From: a candidate division WWE3 bacterium RIFOXYC1_FULL_40_10
GTDB lineage: Bacteria; Patescibacteriota; WWE3; UBA101185; UBA10185
Reading direction: 5' to 3'
Length of the DNA stretch: 64,000 nt
NCBI GenBank assembly: GCA_001773215.1
Contig: MEWB01000001.1
Span: forward strand, 550,099 to 614,098
Below the pieces are notes generated by a model. It ran no database searches. It saw only the letters and a program-made list of their open reading frames with translations, and had not been told where the DNA came from. Below, in pieces: positions 1,816 to 62,826 of this stretch; position 1 is the stretch's first letter; each line of letters starts with the position of its first letter. The position numbers and the translations under genes are program-made.

Positions 1816-4245
1816 TTACTTAATTCCCTCGACAGAAAGATCTCTAACTTGGCAGGTAGATCCTGTAATTTTACACAAATATCTAACATAGAATTTGGCT
1901 GTATTAACGTCCTCGAGAAAAATTTCATGGTTCTGGGTTGCATTATCCTCGTATGTGACATCTTTTAACCAATTAGCACCGTCCAAACTATATGAAACTG
2001 TGATCGTGTTGTTAAAAGTATACGTTTTACTATTGAGGACTATATTTGAAACCTGGGCGGGAAACTCAAAATAGTACACCAAAGGTTTTTCTGGATCCCC
2101 GGAATAGTTGAATATGATACCATCCATTGCCTGAAGCCACCCCTCGTTTGTTATCGAGTCGAATAACCATTTATTGCTTTTCTTTGTTTCCAAATCTGCC
2201 ACGTATTTATAGGAACCCCCTGATTCCTCAAAAGCCTTTGTGCCGTTTTGAGACCCATCGTACAGATTCAATCGATACAACCTAGACTCACCAGGATTAA
2301 ACTCGCGTCTCTCTGAATAATCCATTTTTAATTTGATGTATAACAATTTATCCTTAACAGGAACGGTAATTACGGGGTCATAAAAAACTTCCTTGTCACC
2401 CTCTTTTGAGTAAATAACAGAAAAGTCATTCGGATTATCTCCCGCCGACACTTCAAACGTAACTCCCGGGGGAACTGCAAACAACGTTCGTAAGCTCACT
2501 TCCGCCGGGGGCACTTTAAAAGAAAATGGGTATACTATTTCACTGTCCTTATTGTTAACACTGGCCAAATGGTAATAGCCATAGGTCATGGGTAAGTTGT
2601 AGTTTCCCAAATAGGATACTCCAACATTTTTCCAGTAACTTGCGTCTGCAAACATTTTGCTATAACTGAAATCATCATAATATTGCCACCTAACATTTGG
2701 TGAATTATCCAAAGCTATAGGCAACTTTTTCTCGAATGTAATCTCGTGAATCTGAAAATTCGCGATTTTATCTATCAACTTGTTTTTGGCTGATCCCGAT
2801 AGATACAAATTTTTGAAGTCTGGAATGCTTACGAAATAGTTCTTTCCCGGGGAATTTCGAAACCTTTCATACTCGTCTGAATCCATCAGTAGGAAATAGC
2901 TTTCCGTAAACCAAACTTTGTTCTTACTTTCGGAGCCAAAATAGAAATCAAAGAACGTATCTTCCCCATCTCTTACAAACACTCTGTCTCCCGGTACCAT
3001 TTTACCCTTTAAGTATTCGTGAACTGCTCTCCAGCTATATTCCACATTGGTGTCTAGGGGAAATCCGTAAGTTGTCCTAACCCTCAGGGGAGTAATTGCC
3101 AAAAATGTAATGAGCACCAATAACACCGATAATATCCCACGGAGGGGTACCCTTAGCCGAATTTCTTCTAAGTATTTCGACGTAAGCTCGGATATACTCC
3201 ATAGCCCGTAAGAGATTCCAAGTAGGTACACCGGTAATATGAAGAAAAAATACTTTTCCTCAAACCAATGAGAGGGCCGAACAAAATACAGCTGAAGGAA
3301 CGGGTAGAAAGTCCACAAAAGGACAAAACTTAGAAGCCTAATTTTCTTACGTCCGATCATACTCATAACCCCAAAGGCAAAAACCGTCGTATACAGAAAA
3401 AGCCGGATTCCAGGTCCCAGCCCAAACCAGGAAAACATTGCTAAATAAAACTTTAGAGAAAAATCTAAAGTGGTGCTGTCCATCTGCCGGGCTAAAGAGT
3501 ATCCCAGCTCCAGGGGATGAGAAGGACCATAGTTTACAAGTTTTGTAAAAAGCCCTACATAATAACCTGATCCAACGTTTAGAAATACGATTATACCTGC
3601 AATACAGATACCCATAAACAGCAAGAGTTGATATCTATACTTCTTTAATACAGCAGGATTCACCAAAATGTTTGCGATAAGAAAAACACCAGACATAGCG
3701 GCGACATATAGAGAAGCTGTTTGAGTAAGGATGTTAAGAATATTAGCAAGAGCGTATAACCCTAAAAACCTTACATTTATTACAGACTGCTTGAGATCGT
3801 CTAATAATCTTATTAGGTAATAGATTACTAGTAAAGTAAAAAACATGAAGTACGAATAATGGAGTATCTGCTGTGAAAATTCTACAGCCATAGGAGATAC
3901 TGCCAATAATAAAGCCGCAGAGAGTCCTACTTCATCCCCACCCAATTTTTTAGCTATCAAAAACAGCAGGTATACGGAGCTAACTCCAAACATTACTGAT
4001 GGAAGGCCTAAGGTAAACGTGTTTCTGCCAAATATGGAGAACAGCTTTACAAAGTAATAGTGAGTTGGAGTGGCGACCTCTTTGTATATTTGCACCCAAC
4101 CCCTAGAGGCCTGTTGAACCGACAGGGCTTCATCGTACCAAACATCTCTGGTAGCTAAACCCCTCATACGCAACGCCAAAGCCAAAAACAGGATCAGTAC
4201 CAGGATAATATCTTTCTTACTTAGCTTTTTAATTATTTCGTACAT
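1816..4245 (-). CDS. GT-C fold membrane glycosyltransferase (PMT_2/ArnT-like, GT39/GT83-type) with a large C-terminal extracytoplasmic domain
   Basis: About 11 TM helices. There is a DE motif in the first loop (RDVWYDEALSVQQASRGW). A roughly 430-aa soluble C-terminal domain follows. Confidence 0.6.
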   Translation of the reverse strand: MYEIIKKLSKKDIILVLILFLALALRMRGLATRDVWYDEALSVQQASRGWVQIYKEVATPTHYYFVKLFSIFGRNTFTLGLPSVMFGVSSVYLLFLIAKKLGGDEVGLSAALLLAVSPMAVEFSQQILHYSYFMFFTLLVIYYLIRLLDDLKQSVINVRFLGLYALANILNILTQTASLYVAAMSGVFLIANILVNPAVLKKYRYQLLLFMGICIAGIIVFLNVGSGYYVGLFTKLVNYGPSHPLELGYSLARQMDSTTLDFSLKFYLAMFSWFGLGPGIRLFLYTTVFAFGVMSMIGRKKIRLLSFVLLWTFYPFLQLYFVRPSHWFEEKYFFFILPVYLLGISYGLWSISELTSKYLEEIRLRVPLRGILSVLLVLITFLAITPLRVRTTYGFPLDTNVEYSWRAVHEYLKGKMVPGDRVFVRDGEDTFFDFYFGSESKNKVWFTESYFLLMDSDEYERFRNSPGKNYFVSIPDFKNLYLSGSAKNKLIDKIANFQIHEITFEKKLPIALDNSPNVRWQYYDDFSYSKMFADASYWKNVGVSYLGNYNLPMTYGYYHLASVNNKDSEIVYPFSFKVPPAEVSLRTLFAVPPGVTFEVSAGDNPNDFSVIYSKEGDKEVFYDPVITVPVKDKLLYIKLKMDYSERREFNPGESRLYRLNLYDGSQNGTKAFEESGGSYKYVADLETKKSNKWLFDSITNEGWLQAMDGIIFNYSGDPEKPLVYYFEFPAQVSNIVLNSKTYTFNNTITVSYSLDGANWLKDVTYEDNATQNHEIFLEDVNTAKFYVRYLCKITGSTCQVRDLSVEGIK

Positions 4246-6092
4246 AAAATTAGCAAATCAGCGCCCCTAACTTTTGAATTTTTTCCTTTTGAAACCAAGC
4301 CATTTATTTCTTGCTTATAGTGACTCGTGATTTTACTATTTGCATTGTGGTCAAAAAACCGGCGAGCAAATGAAAGCACGCCCATTTTGTCCCACAGGTT
4401 TAGCGCTTCCTTTGTTATTGTATATGAATAACTCACAAGCTTAAAACCCCTAGCCTCAAGTTTTTTTGCGTAGCTTTTATGATCATATAGGTGGTAATGA
4501 TTAAGCATTTTGTTTCTGTATTTAACGTAAAGGGGGATCAAAAAATTCATTTTTACTTGAGCCAACAGTTGGGATACATAAAGATACTCACTAAAATAAG
4601 CGCTTGGGGACGTAAACAAAAAGTACCCGCCAGGCTTTAATACTCTGTAAATTTCCGAGAGTGTTGCATCATTATCGGGAATGTGCTCAATTACAGAATT
4701 AGAAAAAACAAAATTCACGCTTTCATCTTTAAGCGACATCTGTTCCGCCCCTTCCAGGAAAATTTTCTCGTAACGGCAATTCTTGATTGCTTCCTCGACA
4801 TCCTTGGCCTCCCCATTGTCGACCCCGTATGTAAACTTGCCGGCAAAACACATGCTTGATATTAAGCCATCCCCGCAACCAACATCCAAGGAGGGTCCTA
4901 AAAACTCATACTCCTTTACCGATTCATACATCATTTTTAATTCCAACGCTCTAAATAGCACAGCCGAAGGGTGGTCATACACTTTAAACAACTCTTCAGT
5001 ATCTACCATTTTTACTTTCAAGGAAGGAAATTTCACTTTAGTTTCCAAATTGGCATCTGAACAAAAGATAACTCTTTGTTTAGCGACACTGTATCGATAG
5101 TCCTCTTTTATTATCACTCTGTATAATCCCACAACAGTACCAAATAGAGCGCCTAGCTGGTCCACGCTTCCGGTTCTGAAAAAATTCAAGAAATAGTAGG
5201 TATTCTGCAAAGTCAGATTCACCAAAAATCTAAATAGCTGATCGATATTCGCGATCCTAAAAAATCTAAAATAGAAAATCAGTAGGTTTTGGATTCGATG
5301 ATAAGGCGCCGGACGTGCTTTTTTTACTTTTCCCGACTCAACATGATGTTCAAGACTCACCTTGGGATCGAAAATGAGCTTATAACTGAGTCTTTGAATT
5401 TTTAGGGCTGCATCAGCTTCGTGATAATCACCCAAGCCTTTAATATAGATAGTATCAAAACCGCCGATTTGCTTTAGCAAAGAAGTTCTGGCCGACCAAT
5501 TACACGCTTCCAGGTTTGATACTTCTAGCGGCTTTTCTATTTTTAGACACTCCTTATAGTTAGACCCCAAGGTGAAAACTCCGCTCTTTAGGAAAGTGCT
5601 AACCTCATACATTTTGTTTTCGTAAAGGTAATTATTGTAAATTTTATACACCAGCTTTAAAACCCAGTTTTCGCTGTTTTTAAAGTTTTCCAATACAGCT
5701 GTAAGATCTCTGGAGTGCAGTCCGGCTTGGTTCATTATCGTAGGCCCGGTAACACCCCCAACAGCTATATCCCTTTTAAAAGCTTCCACCATACTTCTAA
5801 ACCACTCGGGATGCATGGTAGTGTCATCATCGATTCTTACAAATATCTCACATGTCGCTCGATCCAAGGCTTCGTTAGCTGCCCCGATTAAGCCACTTTT
5901 ACTTTGGATAAAATACTCAATATCAAGCTTTTTGTATGATAAAACCAATTTTTGAATTTTCTCATCATCTTTCATACCAGCCAAAAGAATAGTGAAATCT
6001 TTTAATGATTGCCTATCCAGGCTATCTAAACATTTTTTAAGGGAGTTCAATCTATTCGAAGTAGGTATAAAGATATTAGCTGCTTTACTCAT
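4233..6092 (-). CDS. Bifunctional glycosyltransferase family 2 (N-term) / class I SAM-dependent methyltransferase (C-term)
   Basis: GT2 signature at the N-terminus (FTILLAGMKDDEK, IDDD). The C-terminus carries LDVGCGDGLIS ... VIEHIPD ... LKPGGYFLF, a Methyltransf_11-like fold. Confidence 0.65.
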   Translation of the reverse strand: MSKAANIFIPTSNRLNSLKKCLDSLDRQSLKDFTILLAGMKDDEKIQKLVLSYKKLDIEYFIQSKSGLIGAANEALDRATCEIFVRIDDDTTMHPEWFRSMVEAFKRDIAVGGVTGPTIMNQAGLHSRDLTAVLENFKNSENWVLKLVYKIYNNYLYENKMYEVSTFLKSGVFTLGSNYKECLKIEKPLEVSNLEACNWSARTSLLKQIGGFDTIYIKGLGDYHEADAALKIQRLSYKLIFDPKVSLEHHVESGKVKKARPAPYHRIQNLLIFYFRFFRIANIDQLFRFLVNLTLQNTYYFLNFFRTGSVDQLGALFGTVVGLYRVIIKEDYRYSVAKQRVIFCSDANLETKVKFPSLKVKMVDTEELFKVYDHPSAVLFRALELKMMYESVKEYEFLGPSLDVGCGDGLISSMCFAGKFTYGVDNGEAKDVEEAIKNCRYEKIFLEGAEQMSLKDESVNFVFSNSVIEHIPDNDATLSEIYRVLKPGGYFLFTSPSAYFSEYLYVSQLLAQVKMNFLIPLYVKYRNKMLNHYHLYDHKSYAKKLEARGFKLVSYSYTITKEALNLWDKMGVLSFARRFFDHNANSKITSHYKQEINGLVSKGKNSKVRGADLLILCTK

Positions 6093-8280: not shown

Positions 8281-9215
8281 ATTTTCATTTTTTCCTCAAT
8301 TATATTCTCGATCATTTTCTCAAAAGTCACACTTGGAGTCCAACCGGTTAATTTTCTTAACTTTGTATTGTCTCCCACCACAGGGTTTCTTCTTCTGGTC
8401 AAAACTTGATTGTTTTCTTTAACATGTTTTTGCCAGTCAAGCTTTAAATAGTCAAAAACTATGCGAACAAAATCCCTCACTGTGTGCTTATTACCTGTCG
8501 AAACCACAAAGTCGCCGGGCACACCAAGCTGTAGTACCCTCCACATTGCTTCCACGTAGTCGGGAGCATATCCCCAATCTACTTCGGCATCCAAATCACC
8601 CAACACTAATTCTGTTTCCAAACCTCTCTTTATTTCCAAGGCGGTCTTAATTATCTTCATGGTAACAAATTTCTCCTCTCTTAATACAGACTCATGGTTA
8701 AATAGAATCACGTTGGAAATAAACATTCCTTGAGTATCCCGATACATTTTTCCTAACTGCATCCCACTATATTTAGTTATAGCATAAGGGTTTTTTGGAT
8801 CCACCGGTGTATCCTCACAAACCATCTCCTTGCTAGGGTCTCCAAAAATTAGCGATGAGGATGCATAAAGTACTTTTGTATGTACAGACTCCTGTTTTAT
8901 AGCTTCCAAAAAGTTGGTGTAACCTTTAACATGAACGTCGAAGCTTTTTTCCACTAGTTTAGCCCCATCAATCGCTGTGTCTTGCGAAGAGTGGTGATAG
9001 GCAGCCAGGTAGTATAATTCATCTGGTTTGGTATTTTTTATCAAGCCTGCCACCATAGCTGAATCCAGGATATCTACTTTTGAAATCCACTCAAATCTGG
9101 TTTCGTCAAAATAATCCAAGTCCAGTCCTAATAAACCGTAATTCTTTCCCCTCAATAGCGAAGTGAGTAATACACCATCCTGGCCTTTACTCCCAACTAT
9201 TATTGCTTTGCTCAT
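8277..9215 (-). CDS. GMD-family short-chain dehydrogenase/reductase, likely GDP-4-keto-6-deoxyhexose reductase (Rmd-like)
   Basis: GxxGxxG (VGSKGQDG), YxxxK, and the GMD/Rmd-type motif [13 protein letters not shown] shared with the upstream Gmd. At 312 aa it is Rmd-sized. Confidence 0.6.
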
Positions 9216-11521
9216 CTAACAATTTCCAATCTGGGTAAAGGGAATACTAGGCTCCCTCCGGAATCCATGTATTTACCTTCTTTACGTATAAAGTTTTCTC
9301 TAAAATGCCAAGGGAGTACAACCATATACTCGGGGCTATCTTTGCGAGCCTCTGCCTCCGAAACAATAGGTATCCCTGTAGTCGGAGTAACCCTTCCGAA
9401 TTTGTAGTCATTCACCTCGGCTATACAAGACATTAAATCAGAAGTAATCCCACAGTACTGTAAAATTACATTTCCTTTTGTTGAAGCCCCATACCCGATA
9501 ACTTTTTCCCCAGAGTTTTTTCTTTCTCTCAAAAAATTTATCAATGTTCTTCTACTGTTTTCTACTCTTTTCTTAAAATCTTCATAAACCAAGTTACTTG
9601 ATAAACCCCTGGCCTCTTCGTCTTTTAGTATGTCCTCGATCGTTTCCGTGGCTTCTCTATACTTAGAGTCCTTTTTAGACACCATAATTAGAAAACTGGC
9701 TCCGTTTGTATCGTTAAAACTAACATCAATTATTTTCAACCCGGCTTTATCAAACATCCACTTCAACGATTTCAATGAGTAATATTCCAAATGCTCATGG
9801 CAAATAGTGTCGTAGGAGGTATTATCCAACATATGAGGCATATAGCTCTGCTCCAATACCCATACTCCATCATCCGCTAAAACTTCGGAGATTTGCTTTA
9901 CAATTTCAAACGGGTGTTCCAAGTCGTAAAACATTGCGATCGAGGTAACTACTTTAACTTTTTGAGAGAATCTTTGTTTTATAGTATCAGCGCTGAAAAA
10001 CTCAGGTATACGAACTATATTATTGGGATAATACTCTTTAAATTTCTCGGCAGTAGGATCAACGCCAACCAAAACCAGATCCTTAGCTTGGTATTTTTGT
10101 AACATGGTACTGTCGTTACTTCCTATATCCAGAACAATATCCCCCATGTTTATATCCACTCTTGATTCTATTTTTCGTACAATTTCGGTTAAATGTTTCA
10201 CCATCGAATTATTTAACCCCGAACGATAACCGTAATTTTCACCGTATAGAAGTTCTAAATCGTAGTTATGCTTCAACTGCAGCAAACCGCAGCCACCCTC
10301 CCCACATCGAACTATTGCCAAAGGGCCTTCCGGTACTTTTTCGTTAGGTAAAGGAAATACACCACTTAATCCAAATATACCTAAATCCAACACATCAATT
10401 AGCCTGGTATTTCCACAAATTCTGCAGCTATCTATTTGCTTGTACAGCATTCTTCCAATTGTTTTTGGTGCCTCAACAGCCACCGGTTTAGCGGATTTAT
10501 ACTCCCTTAGATCTTCTTGAACCATAATGTCAATTAACTGGTCAAATTTAGTTTTAGGTGACCATCCCAGTTTGGTTCGAGCTTTTGAATTATCCCCAAG
10601 GAGGACATCTACTTCAGTAGGTCTAAAATATCGGGCATCTATCTCAACAATTGTATTTCTTGTTTTCTTGTCAATTCCCTTCTCATTTATCCCCTCGCCA
10701 ATCCACTCCAGATTAATCCCAACAAGTGAAAATGCTTTTTCACAGAATTCCCTCACAGTATGTGTTTCACCCGAAGAAATTATAAAATCGTCCGGTGTTT
10801 CTTGCTGGAGCATAAGCCACATCGCCTCAACATACTCCGGAGCATATCCCCAGTCTCTTTTGGCATCAAGGTTTCCTAAGTAAAGTTTCTCCTGCAAACC
10901 GTAATAAATCTTTGCTACTGCTTGTGTTATCTTTCGAGTAACAAAGGTTTTACCTCTCCGAGGAGACTCATGGTTAAACAAAATGCCATTACAGGCGAAT
11001 AAATTGTAGGCTTCACGGTAATTTACAGTAGTCCAATAAGCATATAGCTTGGCACTGGCATATGGAGACCTGGGATAAAACGGTGTATTCTCGCTTTGGG
11101 GTATTTCTTTTGCTTTTCCAAATAACTCAGATGTAGACGCTTGATAAAAACGTGCATTCGGACAGTTGTTTTTTAACCCATCCAGCAATCGAAGAACACC
11201 TATGGCGTCAATTTGAGCTGTATACTCCGGAACTTGAAATGAAAGATGCACGTGTGACTGGGCACCTAAATTATAAATTTCGTCAGGCTTTACTTCGGCC
11301 AAGATTTTATCCAAATTATTGGAATCAGTAAGGTCTCCATAAATAAGCTTTAGCTGCCCGCCGGTTGAGTGCGGAAACTGGATAATATGGTCAATTCTCT
11401 CAGTATTAAATGTAGAAGCCGCCCTCCTTAGGCCATATACTTCATATCCTTTTTGTAAGAGAAACTCCGCCAAATAAGAACCGTCCTGACCAGTAACGCC
11501 GGTAATTAAAGCTTTTTTCAT
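9212..11521 (-). CDS. gmd: GDP-mannose 4,6-dehydratase (N-term ~350 aa) fused to a TylC3/TcaB9-like NDP-hexose C-methyltransferase (Zn-binding Methyltransf_13 + C-terminal Methyltransf_14 domains)
   Basis: [30 protein letters not shown] ... [13 protein letters not shown] is classic Gmd. A 4-Cys Zn site follows (CRICGNTR ... CGEGGCG), then SAM-binding VLDIGSNDS and a long C-terminal domain. Confidence 0.75.
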
Positions 11522-11570: not shown

Positions 11571-12866
11571 TCAATCTCCTTCGAACTTAACTTGGGCATA
11601 GTATCTTAAACCATGTTCTCTAAGTACTTCTCCTCCTTTTAGGTCGGGCAAATCTACAACAAAGGCCAACTCTACAATCTCGGCACCTAGTTTCTTGAGT
11701 AGCCTCGCAGCTGCAAAGGAAGTTCCTCCTGTGGCTAAAAGATCGTCTACCAATAATACTTTTTGACCATACGAAATAGCGTCTCTGTGTACTTCAATAG
11801 TATCAGTTCCGTATTCTTTTTGGTAGGTTTCATACTCACATTCGGCAGGTAGTTTTCCCTTTTTTCGTATCGGAACAAAACCCACTCCAAGCTTATTGGC
11901 CAATGCACCCCCCAAAATGAAGCCTCTACTTTCGATGCCTGCTACAACATCTATGTCAATTTCCGAGTATCGGGTTACGAAATCGTTAATACAAATGTTA
12001 AAACTAACTTGATCCTTTAACAAGGTCGTAATATCCCTAAACATCACACCTTCTTTTGGCCAATTAGGAATTGTTCTTATCTTAGACTTAAGTCCACTTG
12101 TAGCTAACACCTCTACCATCGCTACTATAAGCTTTTTCACCCTTTCGGAATTAGCCTTCATGCGAGTAATAACCATTTCAAAATTGACCGGCTCCTCATT
12201 TTCTTTCCAACAGTCGTAATCGGTGGACATCGCGATCGACTGGTAGGGTATTCCCAATTCGTTAGCCAAAATCACCTCGGGACAGGTGGACATATTGATT
12301 ATGTCTGCCCCCAATTTCTGAAACATCCTACTCTCGGCCTTAGTAGAAAACCTAGGGCCTTCGATTGTCACTATCGTTACGTCTTTGTTATACGAATATC
12401 CAAGGTTCTCACAGATTTCACATAGTCGGCTGCGCATTCCACCGTCGAAGGGCTCCGACATAGGTGTATGTACAACACCCTCTTCGCAAAAAGTATTTGG
12501 TCTACTACGTGTAAAATCTATAAATTGATCGGGAAAAACAATATTTCCGGGCTTGATATCTTCTTTTAAGGAACCCACTGCTGTTGTTGCTAAAATATGA
12601 GTCACACCCAAATCTTTAAAGGCTTGAATATTTGCTCGATAGTTCACTTTCGAAGGTAAAATACCATGCTGCTTGCCATGACGAGAGATTATTGCCACAT
12701 CAACTCCGGAAAGCTTTCCAAGTGTTATGGGAGAGGAAGGAAAACCCCATTTAGTTGGTATTATCTTCTCTTCGTAGTGAGTAAGTAACCGGGGATCATC
12801 AAGACCAGACCCCCCGATAATTCCTATAAGCATAAAAGAATAGTAGTAGCAAATTAGGGGGAACAC
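11571..12866 (-). CDS. Fusion protein: MTA/purine nucleoside phosphorylase (MTAP/PNP family) + adenine phosphoribosyltransferase. The likely true start is the internal ATG near 12833 (MLIGIIGGSG).
   Basis: N-terminal half matches MTAP (IGIIGGSGLDD ... ISRHGKQH ... MSTCPEV). C-terminal half matches APRT nearly end to end (PKEGVMFRDITTLL ... GIESRGF ... VLLVDDLLATGGT). Confidence 0.75.
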   Translation of the reverse strand: MFPLICYYYSFMLIGIIGGSGLDDPRLLTHYEEKIIPTKWGFPSSPITLGKLSGVDVAIISRHGKQHGILPSKVNYRANIQAFKDLGVTHILATTAVGSLKEDIKPGNIVFPDQFIDFTRSRPNTFCEEGVVHTPMSEPFDGGMRSRLCEICENLGYSYNKDVTIVTIEGPRFSTKAESRMFQKLGADIINMSTCPEVILANELGIPYQSIAMSTDYDCWKENEEPVNFEMVITRMKANSERVKKLIVAMVEVLATSGLKSKIRTIPNWPKEGVMFRDITTLLKDQVSFNICINDFVTRYSEIDIDVVAGIESRGFILGGALANKLGVGFVPIRKKGKLPAECEYETYQKEYGTDTIEVHRDAISYGQKVLLVDDLLATGGTSFAAARLLKKLGAEIVELAFVVDLPDLKGGEVLREHGLRYYAQVKFEGD

Positions 12867-13294
12867 AAGGGGAAAGATGATTTAAGATCGAACTTATGCG
12901 TTATTCTGTGATACAAAAAGTAAGCGTACAACCCTGGAGAATTTGTAAACTGGTCAATTAGCAAATGAACCGCCAGAGATAAACCTACGGAATAGAATAG
13001 TAGACTGGAATTAGCTACTAACCCTAAAGAAACAATCCCAAAAGCCAATTCCCAGGAATGGAGGAAAATGTATGCTTTTTGAGATTCTTTAAAATAATTC
13101 CCCGAGAAAAATCCCTTTAGTGTTACTCTCGATCCTCTGAATATCAAGTAATCAATCAAATGGTCTCCGTCGATAAAAAAACCGGCTACCAAGGACAATA
13201 CAAGGGGTAAATAGGATCCTGATAACAAAGAAAGCGAACCCCCCACAAGCAAGCTGGCACTCAAATGCATTATCTCAGTGTAAACCAGAGACAT
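12854..13294 (-). CDS. Small polytopic membrane protein with His/Asp motifs (FIDGDHLIDY, HLLIDQ). Possibly a membrane-bound metal-dependent hydrolase-like (DUF457/YdjM-like) protein.
   Basis: About 4 TM helices and conserved H/D clusters. The family assignment is uncertain. Confidence 0.35.
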   Translation of the reverse strand: MSLVYTEIMHLSASLLVGGSLSLLSGSYLPLVLSLVAGFFIDGDHLIDYLIFRGSRVTLKGFFSGNYFKESQKAYIFLHSWELAFGIVSLGLVANSSLLFYSVGLSLAVHLLIDQFTNSPGLYAYFLYHRITHKFDLKSSFPLCSP

Positions 13295-13300
13295 TACTTA

Positions 13301-14908
13301 CTAAGCCTTAAGCCTCTTGGGCAATAAATGGCGGAATAAACTCTTTGACGCATTAATCCAAAATTTGGGATGATACCAACTTACCTTTGTCTGCTCCTCA
13401 TCGAAGTCGAGTAAGTGTCCAAGTATCCTCTTAGCGGCCATAAGATAGAACCTGATGTCAGCCCAGGTTCTGATACTTAAGATTTTTCGCATAATATATT
13501 GGGGCGTAAAAAACGACGAGTAGAGTGACTGAGTAAGCTCATACAATCTCTCCGTAGAAAAATGGGTCTTCATAACCGGCGCCCTCATATCAAACGCTTC
13601 GTAGTCAAAAGGGTCTACGGTTAACCACCCTTTTTCGACACATTCCTTATATAGTGGCGTACCTGGGTAGGGAATTGTGATAGTGGCTTGCATAGTATCA
13701 ACGTAACCTTTTTTGAACAGCTCTCGTGCCAAATTAATGGTGTTTTGAGCCATCTCTTCGGTTTCCCACGGATAACCTAACATAATTGTAAGATGAGGCT
13801 CTAATCCGCCTTTTTTCGCCATTTGGACTCCTTTTTCAATCTCCTCAATCTTTAAACCCTTATCAAGCTTGTCCAGAGTCTCTTGATTACCTGATTCCAT
13901 ACCGTACAAAATGAACCTAAAATTCGCCTTACCCATTAAATCGTAGTATTCCTGGTTTAAGGCATTTAAACGCATGTTACAGGAATAAACCACTTTTTTA
14001 CTGTAACCTGATTCAATCAACAGCTCACAAAACTTTTTGAGAGGAGGCCCCACAAAAAGTGTTCCGGCATCATCGAAAATTTCTTTTACCCCATACTTAT
14101 CTACTACATACTTCACCTCGGCAAATAACCTTTCGGGCGAAAAGCGGCGATAAGAGCCCCTTGGATTAATTGTGTGATCCCAAACACAAAAAGTACATCT
14201 ATTCCACCAGCAATCCCTGCCTGAATACATGTAAGTAGCTGGAGTATACTTATAATTTCCGTTCTCATAAGCATACAATTCCCATTTGGTTATGTCTCTA
14301 TCAACAAAGGGCAGGTCATCAAGTTTATGTGTAAGCTTTGCCGGGCCGGTCCACCAATATGTATCCTCATGTTTTGTCTGCTCTGGTAAAATGTGTTGCT
14401 TTCCCGTGTCTCTCCCCCAAATTCCCGATGGTACTTCTTTACCCTGAGATATAGAATCAGCCAAGTCCGAGAGTAAAAAGTCATAGTCACCACCCAAAAT
14501 AATATAATCTACTTTACATGCCCCCAAAGTCTCTTTTGGCAAATAGGTAACGTGATCACCTACCATTACAATATCCATACTTTTGAACTGCTCTTTAAGC
14601 TCATTCACAAGCTTCCAATGCATTTTTACAACAGGGGCCTTAGTTTCCAGTAACAATAAGTCAGGCTGTTCTTTTTCGAGTTGAGCCAACCATTCTTTGT
14701 AACTTTTCTTTTCTGCAATACCATCCATCCAGACCACCTCGTACCCCCGTTCTTTTGCTATGGTAGCAGCATAAGCAGGGATCATTGGGTATATATATGT
14801 AGGTGCATTGAAAAACTGAAACTGGCGATTTTGCGATAGCAACGGTACACCCTTGTCTGTCTCAATGGGCGGATAGGCGATGACAATTTTAAAAGTATTT
14901 TTTTGCAT
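13301..14908 (-). CDS. B12-binding domain radical SAM protein (module 2). Start moved to the ATG at 14908 (MQKNTFKIVIAYPP); the ORF-track start at 14947 is a TTG.
   Basis: Same architecture as 136..1593, with an N-terminal B12-binding fold (IVMVGDH, YIILGG). The Cys motif is CX4CX2C (RDCWWNRCTFCVW), not CX3CX2C. The N-terminus aligns with rSAM1 when the start is at 14908. Confidence 0.7.
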   Translation of the reverse strand: MQKNTFKIVIAYPPIETDKGVPLLSQNRQFQFFNAPTYIYPMIPAYAATIAKERGYEVVWMDGIAEKKSYKEWLAQLEKEQPDLLLLETKAPVVKMHWKLVNELKEQFKSMDIVMVGDHVTYLPKETLGACKVDYIILGGDYDFLLSDLADSISQGKEVPSGIWGRDTGKQHILPEQTKHEDTYWWTGPAKLTHKLDDLPFVDRDITKWELYAYENGNYKYTPATYMYSGRDCWWNRCTFCVWDHTINPRGSYRRFSPERLFAEVKYVVDKYGVKEIFDDAGTLFVGPPLKKFCELLIESGYSKKVVYSCNMRLNALNQEYYDLMGKANFRFILYGMESGNQETLDKLDKGLKIEEIEKGVQMAKKGGLEPHLTIMLGYPWETEEMAQNTINLARELFKKGYVDTMQATITIPYPGTPLYKECVEKGWLTVDPFDYEAFDMRAPVMKTHFSTERLYELTQSLYSSFFTPQYIMRKILSIRTWADIRFYLMAAKRILGHLLDFDEEQTKVSWYHPKFWINASKSLFRHLLPKRLKA

Positions 14909-15010
14909 ATTAGTAATAGTACTACATATAGATGTATATGGATACAATGGAATTTAGACCTATAAGATGATAAACTCCTGTTACATCAAAACTAAACAAA
15001 GGAGTTGAAC

Positions 15011-15325
15011 ATGCTTTATCCAGCGACAGCTAAAACAATTGTTGAACAAGCTTTACGTGCGTGGTTAAAGGGGCGCGATCTGTTGTGTGACATAATTCTT
15101 GACGAAAAGTTGAGTGTTGACCGCCAGAAGGACAAACCGGCGATATATTTCTTCGAGATCACATTTCTTACTAATGACCAGGGAGTGCAAAACGCACGAA
15201 AGTGCCAGATTTGGATTGTCCAAGAGCCCAATGGTCCTACTCATGGAAGTTGTATAATGCTTCGAGACCAAGCGACTTACGAAACCAAATTTCAATATTG
15301 GAACGAGGAAATCGTTTTACTGTAA
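15011..15325 (+). CDS. Hypothetical small protein, paralog 1 of 3 (unknown family)
   Basis: SD AAAGGAG 6 nt upstream of ATG 15011; the ORF-track start 15005 is a TTG. It shares the motifs xAWLKx ... aromatic beta-strand ... QIxIV-E-NG with the next two ORFs. Confidence 0.6.
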   Translation: MLYPATAKTIVEQALRAWLKGRDLLCDIILDEKLSVDRQKDKPAIYFFEITFLTNDQGVQNARKCQIWIVQEPNGPTHGSCIMLRDQATYETKFQYWNEEIVLL

Positions 15326-15337
15326 AGAGGCCGCCAA

Positions 15338-15706
15338 ATGGACAGAGTTATTTCACTAGAGGATCTCGAAAACGAAGTCAGTAAGGCATTCTTGTCGTGG
15401 GCTAAGCAATGCCCTTTGCAAATTATACAAATAAAGTTTGCACACCCTGAGATGGTGGCTGTCAAAAAGGAAGGCAATAGGTACACCGCTTTCTTTCATA
15501 TCCACTTTCATGCCAATGTTATGGGCAAGGAAAGTGACATCTTTGATGTTCAGATCGCTGTAGAAACCAATGGTGTTGTAACTAACACTTTGATCTTTTT
15601 GGCTGAGGGTCCCATCAGTGGAACCGCTTACCTGTTGAACTCAAGTAATGCATATGGAAAAAGATTCAAGATCGTGGAAAACTCCATTGAGTTTACCGAT
15701 ATCTAG
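15338..15706 (+). CDS. Hypothetical small protein, paralog 2 of 3
   Basis: SD AAAGAGG 7 nt upstream. Contains LSWAKQ ... YTAFFHIHFHANVMGKESDIFDVQIAVETNG. It starts 12 nt after the paralog-1 stop. Confidence 0.6.
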   Translation: MDRVISLEDLENEVSKAFLSWAKQCPLQIIQIKFAHPEMVAVKKEGNRYTAFFHIHFHANVMGKESDIFDVQIAVETNGVVTNTLIFLAEGPISGTAYLLNSSNAYGKRFKIVENSIEFTDI

Positions 15707-15714
15707 TGGCTAAT

Positions 15715-15765
15715 GAAACCCATCTCTCATAAAGGTGGGTTCATGTTTGATAAATGACCTATAAT
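15715..15765 (+). promoter_or_regulatory. Weak hairpin (gaaaccca...tgggttc) followed by a perfect TATAAT hexamer at 15760..15765. A possible partial terminator plus internal promoter for paralog 3.
   Basis: The stem is 6-7 bp with a bulge, and TATAAT lies about 40 nt upstream of ATG 15806. I found no convincing -35 (TTGATA is only 7 nt away). Confidence 0.2.
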
Positions 15766-15805
15766 ATAGTATGCTGTTATAACGTCATAAAAAAAAGGAG
15801 CTAGA

Positions 15806-16159
15806 ATGTCGCAGGACAAAAACTACTGGATGGAAGTTTGTAGGAATATAGTTAACGTAATTATTCAAGAGTGGCTGAAAAAAAACTACCCCGGAATCGA
15901 TTTTACAAAACTTTGCACAAACAGAGACACCTCCAAAAATAACAATACAAACACTCACATAAAGTGCTGGTTTGACTGTTTGGCCGAGTATGGGCATGGA
16001 TTGAATGCCCAGGTAGAGATCGGTATTGAAGTTTTGGTGCACGCAGAGAACGAGTGGGAAATTAGGGGCCAATTGACAGAAAGGCGAGTGAATTGCCCTA
16101 TAGCACTTGAATTTCTGGTCACAAGCTATTCTCCTAGAGCTACTGTGGTTTGGTTATAG
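15806..16159 (+). CDS. Hypothetical small protein, paralog 3 of 3 (Asn-rich insert KNNNTNTH)
   Basis: SD AAAGGAG 5 nt upstream. Contains QEWLKKN ... HIKCWFDCLAEYGHGLNAQVEIGIEVLVHAENE. It is preceded by a 99-nt spacer with a hairpin and a TATAAT hexamer. Confidence 0.6.
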   Translation: MSQDKNYWMEVCRNIVNVIIQEWLKKNYPGIDFTKLCTNRDTSKNNNTNTHIKCWFDCLAEYGHGLNAQVEIGIEVLVHAENEWEIRGQLTERRVNCPIALEFLVTSYSPRATVVWL

Positions 16160-16170
16160 TAAGAACTAAA

Positions 16171-16209
16171 GGGCGTGCTATTTTTAAAATAAAGCGCGCC
16201 TTTTTTATT
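16171..16209 (+). terminator. Rho-independent terminator between convergent genes, likely bidirectional
   Basis: Stem GGCGTGC / GCGCGCC (7 bp, one G-U) with an AT loop, followed by TTTTTTATT on the plus strand. An A-tract precedes the stem, so the minus-strand reading also gets a hairpin + U-rich tail. It overlaps the ferredoxin stop. Confidence 0.55.
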
Positions 16210-16465
16210 CCAGGGGCCAAAGTTGTTTACCATCCATATCCTCAACTATGATCGCCATAGTCGGACAAGACTTAGCGGCCATGACAATCTTCTCCAACTC
16301 ATCCCAAATCCCTTCCTTAACATATGATATACCGTCCTCATCCAAATCAAACGTGTCTGCGGCATACACAATACAGGTTCCTGCGCTAATACACTTTTCC
16401 TTAATTACCTTGATCCTCACTTTTTGATCAGAGCTTATTGCAAATTCATTTTGTCCTTTTTTCAT
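16205..16465 (-). CDS. Small single-cluster ferredoxin (paralog of 1590..1808)
   Basis: CISAGTCIVYAADTF ... AKSCPTMAI over 86 aa. It is the last gene of the upstream minus-strand unit. Confidence 0.65.
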   Translation of the reverse strand: MKKGQNEFAISSDQKVRIKVIKEKCISAGTCIVYAADTFDLDEDGISYVKEGIWDELEKIVMAAKSCPTMAIIVEDMDGKQLWPLE

Positions 16466-61413: not shown

Positions 61414-62826
61414 ATGCTAAAAACCCTAAAAAGCAACCTTCCATTTTTGGTATTGGCAGTATTCATTTCGTTTACGGCATATTTTAACAGTTTATCAGGC
61501 GAATTTGTTAGCGCGGATGACGAACCGGGAATAGTAAATAACTCTTCGTTAACAAGTGATAGCATACTTCTACACAAAAACATTCAACAAACCATAAACA
61601 GTGTTATTGTAAAAACCTTCGGAATAAAACCTGCTCCTTTCCATGTGCTGTCCCTAACTCTTCATTTAATTAATATTATTTTGGTGTTTGCTTTAACAAA
61701 AGAGCTTATTTCAACACGTATTTCCGCCATTACAACGTTACTCTTTGCCTTACATCCCATAAATACCGAAGCAGTTACATGGATTTCTGCATCCGGATAC
61801 TTATTAAGGAATATATTTCTGTTTTCAACGGCTTACCTATTTACTAGGTATATTAAAGAAAAAAACATCAAGTTCTACATTGGTAGTGTTTCTGTCTACC
61901 TGCTCGGACTATTTACAACGAAAGATCCCTGGATTCTTACTACTCTACCTATTTTAGGTATAATCGACTACTTTTTTCTATCTGCCAAGCACCCCAGGAT
62001 GCAAATAAATGCTGTCTACAAGTATTTGCCCTTTATAACCTCAACTTTTATTTTCATCCTTATAATTATATTTCCTCAATATAGAAACAGAGTTGAAGTG
62101 TTGTCAATCGATACTCAAAGCGTAACTCCTGTAATAAATAGGGCGCCTTATATTCTGTTTAAAACAGCGGAATTGCTAATAATGCCCATTAACCTAACTA
62201 TTTACCATGATAATAGTCAGATTTCTTATGGTGACTACCAATGGATGGTGGCCATTTCACTAATTTGGTTGCTAATAGTTCTAAGATATTGGCAAAAGAA
62301 TAGAACCGTAACAGGGCTGTTATTCGGAATCCCCTTGACTTTGTTGCCATCCTTTAGCCCTGTAATAATTGCTTGGTTTATAGCCGAAAGGTATCTATAC
62401 ACTGCTACATGGCTATTTTCTATAGGTGTGGCAATGCTACTACTAAAACTTAATAAATCTGTGTTTGCGGCAGTGCTTACTATTATATTGATTTTGTATT
62501 GGGTGCGGGTTGTTGATAGAAATCGAGATTTCGCTGATAATATAGCCCTGTGGGAAGCAACCCAAAAAACCAATCCCGTAAGCTACCGTGTATATAACAA
62601 TTTAGGAGACGCTTATCTTAGGGCTGGCGATACGCAAAAAGCAGTGGCGAGTTTTCAACACGCTATCGAGATTAACCCACAATACTCTGATGCCATTTAC
62701 AATTTAGGAAGATTATATGTAGACTTGGGACAAACTGAAGAAGCCCGGTTACTGCTAAATAGATCATTAGAAATTAACCCCAATTTAGTGCCGGCTACGG
62801 AACTACTGGAAAAAATAGGACGGTAA
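61414..62826 (+). CDS. GT-C fold membrane glycosyltransferase (PMT_2-like) with C-terminal TPR repeats (TMTC-like architecture)
   Basis: DE motif right after TM1 (FVSADDEPGIV) and about 11 TM helices. The C-terminal roughly 110 aa holds 3 TPR-like repeats (YNNLGDAYLRAGDTQKAVASFQHAIEINPQYSDAIYNLGRLY...). Confidence 0.6.
   Translation: MLKTLKSNLPFLVLAVFISFTAYFNSLSGEFVSADDEPGIVNNSSLTSDSILLHKNIQQTINSVIVKTFGIKPAPFHVLSLTLHLINIILVFALTKELISTRISAITTLLFALHPINTEAVTWISASGYLLRNIFLFSTAYLFTRYIKEKNIKFYIGSVSVYLLGLFTTKDPWILTTLPILGIIDYFFLSAKHPRMQINAVYKYLPFITSTFIFILIIIFPQYRNRVEVLSIDTQSVTPVINRAPYILFKTAELLIMPINLTIYHDNSQISYGDYQWMVAISLIWLLIVLRYWQKNRTVTGLLFGIPLTLLPSFSPVIIAWFIAERYLYTATWLFSIGVAMLLLKLNKSVFAAVLTIILILYWVRVVDRNRDFADNIALWEATQKTNPVSYRVYNNLGDAYLRAGDTQKAVASFQHAIEINPQYSDAIYNLGRLYVDLGQTEEARLLLNRSLEINPNLVPATELLEKIGR

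Follow-up and report, generated by a model that had tools for sequence, protein, structure and literature searches.

A putative bifunctional MTAP-APRT fusion enzyme in a candidate division WWE3 genome and its relation to coupled mtnP-apt gene pairs

Does one open reading frame (ORF) in a candidate division WWE3 genome encode both steps from S-methyl-5'-thioadenosine (MTA) to AMP, and if so, how did it arise and what would it serve? The ORF lies on the minus strand at 11571..12866 of a 64,000-nt stretch, here called the window, of contig MEWB01000001.1 from candidate division WWE3 bacterium RIFOXYC1_FULL_40_10 (Patescibacteria). It joins an MTA phosphorylase (MTAP; gene, mtnP) (EC 2.4.2.28) to an adenine phosphoribosyltransferase (APRT; EC 2.4.2.7; gene, apt) in a single reading frame. 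Its product is very probably a bifunctional adenine-salvage enzyme, derived from a coupled mtnP-apt operon by loss of a stop and a start codon. An earlier reading of the DNA alone (the sequence-only reading) had proposed the same two activities for the two halves and had tied the gene to small-genome purine economy and to a glycan operon; its enzymology is supported by the results below, and its ecological and operon rationale is weakly supported.

The Fused Gene and Its Catalytic Residues

The ORF runs without interruption for 431 codons from a GTG codon (residue numbers below follow this numbering), and the motifs by which its halves were first recognized, IGIIGGSGL, NMSTCPEV, PKEGVMFRDITTLL, and VLLVDDLLATGGT, are all present. 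Pfam places PNP_UDP_1 at residues 14 to 252 (E = 1e-44) and Pribosyltran at residues 303 to 407 (E = 8e-17). Among NCBIfam models, the MTAP half passes the equivalog cutoff of TIGR01694 (291.4 bits; cutoff, 274.85) and the APRT half passes NF002634 (250.1; cutoff, 170) and TIGR01090 (217.2; cutoff, 185.85), while the models for 6-oxopurine purine nucleoside phosphorylase (PNP) and methylthioinosine phosphorylase (MTIP) score under their cutoffs. Human MTAP (1CB0) aligns to residues 12 to 269 (E = 7e-80) and the bacterial APRTs 4MB6, 5B6H, and 2DY0 to residues 259 to 430 (E of about 1e-50). The alignment of the APRT half to the Escherichia coli and Yersinia APRTs is gapless over 172 aa, with about 50% identity to E. 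coli APRT. Profile and structure alignments thus bear out the architecture first proposed, an N-terminal MTAP followed by a near full-length APRT. No PDB chain carries both domains.

The join between the two halves is genuine and not an assembly artefact, because the identical protein recurs on 16 contigs and its best database matches are fused as well. At least four assemblies or samples contributed the 16 contigs (ENA ERZ28563784, ERZ28563687, and ERZ27254748; Logan SRR2090170), which always show the same context, and no frameshift or stop separates the halves. Contigs of up to 897 kb bear the gene. All of the best 120 matches among 5.8 billion proteins (120/120; 408 to 473 aa) carry both Pfam domains in one protein. 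That a sequencing or assembly error at the junction joined two separate genes might be argued from the closest species-representative relatives, including a WWE3 locus (L049), in which two genes abut or overlap so that a single-base error could imitate a fusion, but this explanation is effectively refuted by the identical 431-codon ORF in independent assemblies, by junction DNA without a homopolymer, by the more than 120 database clusters that share the one-protein architecture, and by uninterrupted ORFs in 14 GTDB-representative genomes.

The true start is the ATG at 12833 (MLIGIIGG…), for a protein of 420 aa. Twenty of 20 aligned fused homologues begin M-x-K-I-G-I-I-G-G, the 11 additional N-terminal residues read from the GTG have no counterpart in homologues, and AlphaFold2 (AF2) models residues 1 to 10 as disordered (predicted local distance difference test [pLDDT] score, 34). 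With this start, a 20-nt gap separates the gene from the upstream ORF, whose stop codon lies at 12854-12856, and the overlap between the two that had been described is a start-codon artefact. Public gene callers repeat the GTG start (P0001, 431 aa). The features of the gene are as follows.

11571..12833, minus strand: coding sequence of the putative bifunctional MTAP-APRT, 420 aa plus stop (ORF, alignment of 20 homologues, identical gene on 16 contigs)
12834..12866, minus strand: spurious N-terminal extension from the GTG, with a seeming 13-nt overlap (no homologue; pLDDT, 34)
12099..12833, minus strand: MTAP domain of the trimeric PNP family, residues 12 to 256 (PNP_UDP_1, TIGR01694, 1CB0)
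12087..12104, minus strand: junction or hinge, …L-A-T-S-G-L-K…, from the C-terminal MTAP helix to the APRT N terminus (variable-length linker columns, low pLDDT at residues 258 to 276, unfused junctions)
11574..12092, minus strand: APRT domain, a type I phosphoribosyltransferase, residues 259 to 431 (NF002634, TIGR01090, gapless APRT alignment)
12801..12824, minus strand: phosphate-loop motif GIIGGSGL, with Ser20 at the position of human Thr18 (1CB0 alignment; invariant in the fused family)
12207..12224, minus strand: base-binding motif TDYDCW, with Asp216/Asp218 at the positions of human Asp220/Asp222 (1CB0 alignment; invariant)
11721..11759, minus strand: loop binding phosphoribosyl pyrophosphate (PRPP), VLLVDDLLATGGT, residues 370 to 382 (sequence reading, APRT structure alignment)

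In the alignment to 1CB0 (human residues in parentheses), the phosphate site consists of Ser20 (Thr18), Arg62/His63 (Arg60/His61), Thr95/Ala96 (Thr93/Ala94), and Ser193 (Thr197), with two conservative Thr-to-Ser changes relative to human MTAP. The ribose and 5' pocket consists of His67 (His65), Phe173/Ser174 (Phe177/Ser178), Met192 (Met196), and His133 (His137'), and the adenine site of Asp216/Asp218 (Asp220/Asp222), as in 6-aminopurine enzymes. These residues are invariant or nearly so across the 20 fused homologues; Phe173, Met192, Asp216, and Asp218 of the base site and His133 show no variation. We take the roles of the human residues at the phosphate, ribose, and adenine sites, with His137' contributed by the neighbouring subunit, to be those given in the structural literature on MTAP, and we assume that Asp220/Asp222 are specific to 6-aminopurine enzymes, 6-oxopurine PNPs carrying Asn there.

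In the APRT half, F276-R277-D278, R314, R334, and E351-Y352 are invariant in the 20 fused homologues, as are D374, D375, A378, and G381 of the PRPP loop. The SRGF arginine, RKxGKLP, the loop EYG, and VDDLLATGGT are kept as well, and the key positions agree with the alignment ranges of human APRT (1ORE). Presumably, F276-R277-D278 forms the adenine site, E351-Y352 belongs to the catalytic flexible loop, and R314/R334 are the arginines that bind pyrophosphate (PPi) and PRPP, equivalent to R67/R87' of human APRT, with R87' supplied by the partner subunit. Nothing in these alignments suggests that either half is degenerating; the loss of catalytic residues that had been raised as a concern is found in neither.

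Measured against known enzymes, the N-terminal 245 aa can be aligned end to end with MTAP/MtnP of human (1CB0) and archaeal (1WTA, 2A8Y) origin, with the same phosphate, ribose, and adenine residues. The protein differs from human MTAP in having Ser for Thr at the two phosphate-site positions and in lacking the C-terminal tail that bears Leu279', its last helix leading through a hinge of about 5 to 10 residues into APRT. With the APRTs of E. coli (2DY0), Yersinia (4MB6), and human (1ORE), the APRT half shares its PRPP loop, its flexible-loop Glu-Tyr, and the FRD that binds adenine, but whereas known APRTs are free proteins of about 180 aa, here the N terminus is tethered to MTAP.

Distribution and Origin of the Fusion

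A tblastn scan of one genome per GTDB species found at least 592 relatives, and the best 80 loci were classified from their DNA. Fourteen are true single-ORF fusions, in nine Woesearchaeota, one Pacearchaeota, one Nanoarchaeia, one unclassified archaeon, one Methanosarcinales-labelled contig, and one Buchananbacteria of the candidate phyla radiation (CPR), a spread mainly within the DPANN archaea. Separate adjacent mtnP and apt genes, in either order, occupy 53 of the 80 loci. In 26 of these, an in-frame stop is followed by a Shine-Dalgarno sequence and an ATG (e.g., L005, '…aggaggattTAAatgccg'); in 24 (by subtraction), the WWE3 representative L049 among them, the adjoining genes lie in different frames and often overlap; and in three the order is apt-mtnP (one Buchananbacteria and two complete Maridesulfovibrio chromosomes of 4.1 to 4.65 Mb). 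At one locus (L048), about 3.2 kb lie between apt and mtnP, and 12 loci have MTAP only. The apparent surplus of in-frame pairs is a ranking bias.

Hosts of the coupled pair include Margulisiibacteriota/Saganbacteria, Nitrospirota/Thermodesulfovibrionales, Desulfobacterota, Magnetococcales, Bathyarchaeia, and Patescibacteria, and in many unfused pairs the Shine-Dalgarno sequence lies within the 3' end of the MTAP gene, with a gap of 0, -1, or +2 nt. A tightly and often translationally coupled mtnP-apt operon is presumably the widespread and ancestral state, and the single polypeptide a derived state found mostly in DPANN archaea, with scattered cases in CPR.

Coverage of the query by tblastn was rejected as evidence of fusion, since 26 loci matched by a single high-scoring segment pair hold in-frame stops through which the segment runs. 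Recoding or programmed read-through of these stops was likewise rejected, as all three stop codons occur, often several consecutively; the stops precede a Shine-Dalgarno sequence and an ATG that opens 'MPIKS…'.

Comparison of the junctions shows how the fused gene could have formed. In the closest unfused relatives, MTAP ends in '…(R/G)RI*' with AGGAGG, GGGAGG, or AAGGAG inside its last codons, and APRT starts as 'MPIKSRIRT…' 0, -1, or +2 nt later. The hinge of the fused protein falls where these pairs have their stop, Shine-Dalgarno region, and start codon. The fused junctions read '…KLHP~IKSRIRT' in the Buchananbacteria locus (L007), '…KINP~IKNMIRT' in P0004, and '…VEVLATSG~LKSKIRT' in the window; all three are of the same length and two keep the Pro of 'MP', as expected from simple loss of the stop and start. 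The coupled pairs encode the same enzymes in the same order, are 55 to 68% identical per half, and have their junction at the same position; they differ in specifying two polypeptides with a stop and a start (abutting, offset by -1 or +2 nt, or in overlapping frames), both of which the window gene has lost.

When the two halves were concatenated and a neighbor-joining (NJ) tree was built (81 sequences, 409 columns, 100 bootstraps), the protein of the window fell in a clade with L049 (WWE3, unfused), P0002, P0004, and P0007 (fused), L007 (Buchananbacteria, fused), L008 (Patescibacteria, unfused), and five unfused Margulisiibacteriota, Saganbacteria, or unclassified bacterial loci. This bacterial clade shuts out all DPANN fusions in 81 of 100 bootstraps. 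Because fused and unfused states are interleaved in the tree, repeated fusion (or fission) is indicated, with at least one origin apart from that in DPANN. The fusion thus apparently arose more than once by loss of stop and start from a coupled operon, in DPANN archaea and in some Patescibacteria, and in reverse order elsewhere, as judged from the tree and the junctions.

The reverse architecture, APRT-MTAP, occurs in two clusters, P0243 and P0244 (L090), the contig of one being only 1.8 kb long. Fusion in both orders, each arising independently, is strong Rosetta-stone evidence of functional coupling, here that MTAP and APRT work as a unit in anaerobes, and the loci form a natural series, from coupled pair to stop-loss fusion (more than once) to reverse-order fusion, in which operon neighbours turn into multidomain enzymes. 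Other MTAP fusions, namely APRT-MTAP (P0243/P0244), a fusion to a sugar-nucleotide dehydrogenase (P0248), and PfkB kinase-MTAP (P0263), have an MTAP of the same clade, 43 to 55% identical, with a functionally linked partner; partner or domain order differs from that in the window, and some stand on single short contigs. The library of 50%-identity representatives that contains PfkB kinase-MTAP also holds CorA-MTAP and RING finger-MTAP proteins (P0267, P0257), which may be gene-calling artefacts or eukaryotic.

Some unfused pairs have an enlarged spacer of about 40 to 150 nt or more with several stops (L008, 8771-8925; L063, 8762-8802; L018, L022, and L031), and that of L008 resembles a partial duplication of the 3' end of the MTAP gene ('…gttataccaaaaataaaaTAAttacaccattgtcaaagttataccaaaaataaaataa'). 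Such spacers suggest a mutational hot spot at the mtnP-apt junction.

With about a dozen fused members among the 1.84 billion 50%-identity representatives searched, the fused family is a compact one; the search gives no clean fusion count. Public databases annotate the fusion solely as 'S-methyl-5'-thioadenosine phosphorylase', and a full-text literature search, outside which most subscription journals lie, found no description of the fusion or of the coupled gene pair. The MTAP-APRT fusion thus appears to be uncharacterised; it is real, recurrent, and chemically unsurprising. Hundreds of entries labelled only as MTAP would be bifunctional, and searches for a stand-alone apt would misscore adenine salvage in DPANN and CPR genomes as missing.

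Proposed Function and Substrates

The MTAP domain is predicted to catalyze the phosphorolysis of a 6-aminopurine nucleoside to adenine and a (5-substituted) ribose-1-phosphate, the substrate being MTA and probably also 5'-deoxyadenosine and/or adenosine. The APRT domain would then convert adenine and PRPP to AMP and PPi. That one polypeptide carries MTA or adenosine through adenine to AMP, as the sequence-only reading had it, is consistent with the homology of the halves, their intact catalytic residues, and the recurrence of the fusion. The fusion would fix a 1:1 stoichiometry and co-localize the activities, and the essentially irreversible APRT step would use up adenine and so drive the reversible phosphorolysis forward. 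Such a pull by removal of adenine is established thermodynamic reasoning for nucleoside phosphorylases, and the fusion leaves the known chemistry unchanged.

Apart from apt, the genes found repeatedly near the pair in the 80 loci serve the recycling of S-adenosylmethionine (SAM) by-products. mtnA lies near the pair in 11 loci (TIGR00512, 398 bits; cutoff, 279), a class II aldolase-like gene in six, an MtaD-like amidohydrolase/deaminase gene in four, and ahcY (651 bits; cutoff, 498) together with a PfkB kinase gene in three. These neighbours support MTA and 5'-deoxyadenosine as physiological substrates.

Similar two-step chemistry has been demonstrated elsewhere. In Schistosoma mansoni, the adenosine phosphorylase SmMTAP and APRT form a chain from nucleoside through adenine to AMP (PMC5147791), and the nucleocidin cluster encodes NucPNP and NucV for the same two steps within one biosynthetic cluster, with NucV proposed to use a modified PRPP (PMC8694150). 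Both systems consist of separate proteins in eukaryotic or actinomycete hosts, whereas the window gene specifies one polypeptide.

Several points weigh against the proposed salvage enzyme and its derivation. The phylogeny rests on NJ, with moderate support, and the pairing of the window with L049 is weak (37 of 100 bootstraps). The counterpart of human Leu279', which we take to be part of the 5'-alkylthio pocket, is absent, as APRT begins straight after the last MTAP helix; the tail that bears it is likewise missing in 244-aa unfused relatives. In the AF2 monomer model (mean pLDDT, 82.5; predicted template modelling score, 0.59), two confident domains are joined by a hinge (residues 258 to 276) with pLDDT below 50, so that the mutual orientation of the domains is undefined and channelling of adenine between them is conjecture. 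The sequence does not tell which of MTA, 5'-deoxyadenosine, and adenosine would be preferred.

This last point leaves room for a protein that is mainly an adenosine scavenger, supplying APRT with adenine and central metabolism with ribose-1-phosphate, with MTA as a minor substrate. Patescibacteria are generally seen as dependent on scavenged nucleosides, which favours such a role, as do the ahcY and PfkB-type kinase genes that adjoin the pair in three loci, the existence of a PfkB-MTAP fusion, and the invariant Ser of the family at the position of human Thr18, as in SmMTAP. SmMTAP uses adenosine efficiently, the adenosine phosphorylase-APRT chain being the main schistosome route (PMC5147791), and NucPNP slightly prefers adenosine (PMC8694150). 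However, the MTAP half passes the MTAP equivalog cutoff and not those of the PNP models, and the commonest additional neighbour, mtnA, encodes a methylthioribose-1-phosphate isomerase and points to MTA or 5'-deoxyadenosine. Ser20 was also rejected as a marker of adenosine specificity: a Ser/Thr swap at the phosphate site shifts the kinetics of SmMTAP mutants by only about 2- to 5-fold (PMC5147791), and the difference is not diagnostic. A scavenger of chiefly adenosine is, on this evidence, rather unlikely.

The bifunctional salvage enzyme had also been presented as valuable in an organism with a reduced genome that probably lacks de novo purine synthesis. The premise of a reduced genome is reasonable, the host being one of the small-genome Patescibacteria, and ultra-small symbionts for which any loss of purine rings is too costly may save much by returning SAM by-products to AMP on one polypeptide. 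As a rationale for the coupling the premise falls short, however, since mtnP-apt pairs are not specific to reduced genomes and occur in Nitrospirota, Desulfobacterota (Maridesulfovibrio, 4 to 4.6 Mb), Margulisiibacteriota, and Bathyarchaeia.

MTAP is an obligate trimer and APRT an obligate dimer. As each half keeps its residue that acts across the subunit interface (His133 and R334), the fused protein would be expected to assemble further, for instance into a D3 hexamer.

The Glycan Cluster and Neighbouring Genes

The gene stands in a same-strand string of glycan genes: a B12-binding radical SAM gene, a 6-nt gap, a 146-aa ORF, a 20-nt gap, MTAP-APRT, a 49-nt gap, and a fused Gmd/C-methyltransferase gene, followed by genes for a Gmd-like short-chain dehydrogenase/reductase (SDR), a GT4 and a GT2 glycosyltransferase, a GT2-methyltransferase, PMT_2, a ferredoxin, and a second B12-binding radical SAM enzyme. 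The immediate neighbours are as follows.

13301..14947, minus strand: B12-binding radical SAM enzyme encoded two genes upstream, which may supply 5'-deoxyadenosine (Pfam Radical_SAM and B12-binding)
12854..13294, minus strand: upstream ORF of 146 aa, a predicted membrane protein (no Pfam match; not conserved beside mtnP/apt elsewhere)
9212..11521, minus strand: GDP-mannose 4,6-dehydratase/sugar C-methyltransferase fusion of 769 aa, 49 nt past the MTAP-APRT stop (Pfam GDP_Man_Dehyd and Methyltransf_13/23/14)

The Gmd-methyltransferase fusion that had been placed directly downstream is confirmed by Pfam. The upstream protein, described as a small His-rich membrane protein, is a predicted membrane ORF, but its His content is mild (6 His in 146 aa, about 4%). 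The view that by-products of nearby SAM-consuming enzymes are recycled holds in part. Radical SAM enzymes fit as a source of 5'-deoxyadenosine, but methyltransferases release S-adenosylhomocysteine, which MTAP does not cleave, so that among the nearby SAM by-products only 5'-deoxyadenosine is a plausible substrate.

The position within a glycan operon, which had been called unusual, is real in the window, but close relatives do not share it: synteny is lacking in L049 (WWE3), L005 to L008, Margulisiibacteriota, and P0004. Glycan-cluster embedding recurs in a few loci. At L084 (Nanoarchaeota MAG226, JBFMDT010000001.1, 102-11520), an unfused MTAP gene with no apt within 8 kb lies in a glycan cluster with a Gmd 52% identical to that of the window, a B12-binding radical SAM gene, and GT2 genes, a likeness that may reflect cluster content shared or transferred between CPR and DPANN. 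At L089 (JGI 3300014208, Ga0172379_10002657, 8294-11055), apt (173 aa) and the following fusion of MTAP to a UDP-glucose/GDP-mannose dehydrogenase (P0248; 684 aa; MTAP half 55% identical to that of the window; one contig only) close a cluster of GT2, GT4, radical SAM-SPASM, and epimerase genes. In L006, L007, and L088, the pair or fusion has an SDR epimerase gene as its immediate neighbour. The link to glycan genes is suggestive but statistically not significant: SDR genes occur at 0.18 per 10 kb up to 1.5 kb away and at 0.05 per 10 kb at 4 to 8 kb (4 versus 2 genes, not significant), glycosyltransferase genes are not enriched near the pair, and a radical SAM gene lies within 4 kb in only three loci.

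These loci bear on whether the gene is dedicated to the glycan cluster, clearing 5'-deoxyadenosine as an inhibitory radical SAM by-product and recovering its adenine, rather than serving general salvage. It is co-directional with its neighbours, separated from them by short gaps, and lies inside a cluster of about 38 kb with at least two B12-binding radical SAM genes and small ferredoxin genes. A promoter and terminator scan around the gene found fewer sites than in shuffled sequences and no informative signal above chance. The gene may be co-transcribed with the cluster. The cases of L084, L089, and the epimerase-flanked loci point the same way. However, the absence of synteny and of significant enrichment tells against a dedicated role, glycan genes make up much of genomes of this kind, which makes chance proximity likely, and in a small genome the gene is probably the only APRT gene and therefore housekeeping. 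We regard dedicated clearance as unlikely.

A still bolder extension concerns the assembly. To accommodate both symmetries, a fusion of a trimer to a dimer through a hinge of at most about 10 residues would have to close on itself, as a D3 hexamer in which three APRT dimers connect two MTAP trimers or as some larger cage. Such a structure could sequester and channel adenine and might act as a 5'-deoxyadenosine sink protecting the B12-binding radical SAM sugar-tailoring enzymes of glycan clusters in Patescibacteria and DPANN. If true, the sink would remove a product that otherwise poisons these neighbouring enzymes. We consider the proposal very doubtful. A fusion of trimer and dimer that occurs in nature is of interest for the study of protein assembly.

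It is highly improbable that the protein is a dedicated pair in the manner of NucPNP/NucV, with the APRT half joining adenine to a modified PRPP-like sugar to make an unusual nucleotide for glycan synthesis. The precedent is a separate MTA/adenosine phosphorylase and a slow APRT paralogue in a biosynthetic cluster (PMC8694150), and the window gene lies among sugar-tailoring genes, radical SAM and C-methyltransferase genes included; yet its APRT half is canonical, gapless against E. coli APRT and above the equivalog cutoffs, and the same fusion or pair is found in many nonglycan contexts.

The window itself is bacterial. Names of top protein matches had suggested a DPANN archaeal affinity, which was rejected on the bacterial rpoB-rpoC-rpsL-rpsG-fusA-tuf and S10-spc array; the window also holds lepB, secY, ybaB, and adk, and its RpoB is 78 to 80% identical to candidate division WWE3 proteins. 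ARAGORN found no tRNA genes in the 64 kb, and no Rfam family reached the gathering threshold.

The glycan/cell-envelope cluster (about 1-38800, minus strand) follows straight after secY-ybaB-adk and runs in the same direction as the ribosomal superoperon. Among its products are about seven PMT_2/ArnT-like membrane glycosyltransferases, several GT2 and GT4 enzymes, a GT2-methyltransferase fusion (4233-6092), two flippases, and DUF2079, LPG_synthase_TM, UDP-glucose dehydrogenase, and CAP-domain proteins. In the dehydratase-methyltransferase fusion at 9212-11521, the dehydratase (residues 5 to 333) is followed by a Methyltransf_13 zinc domain, Methyltransf_23, and Methyltransf_14; by its domains, it would make and C-methylate GDP-4-keto-6-deoxyhexose in one polypeptide.

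A small ORF upstream of mtnP was considered as a conserved neighbour and rejected, because the ORFs of about 140 aa at L006, L047, L008, and L049 are mutually unrelated and unlike that of the window. A 143-aa membrane ORF at L084 is weakly similar to the 146-aa ORF of the window (E of about 1e-3). Two small ferredoxin genes (1590-1808 and 16205-16465, both minus strand; 72 and 86 aa; Fer4_13/15) lie at or near the radical SAM genes at 136-1593 and 13301-14947, and their products look like dedicated reductants for the B12-binding radical SAM enzymes. Between the second ferredoxin gene and its radical SAM gene, three consecutive small ORFs (106, 122, and 117 aa; no Pfam match) break into the glycan cluster at 15005-16159 on the plus strand, and the sole other plus-strand gene in the window is a TPR gene at 61414-62826.

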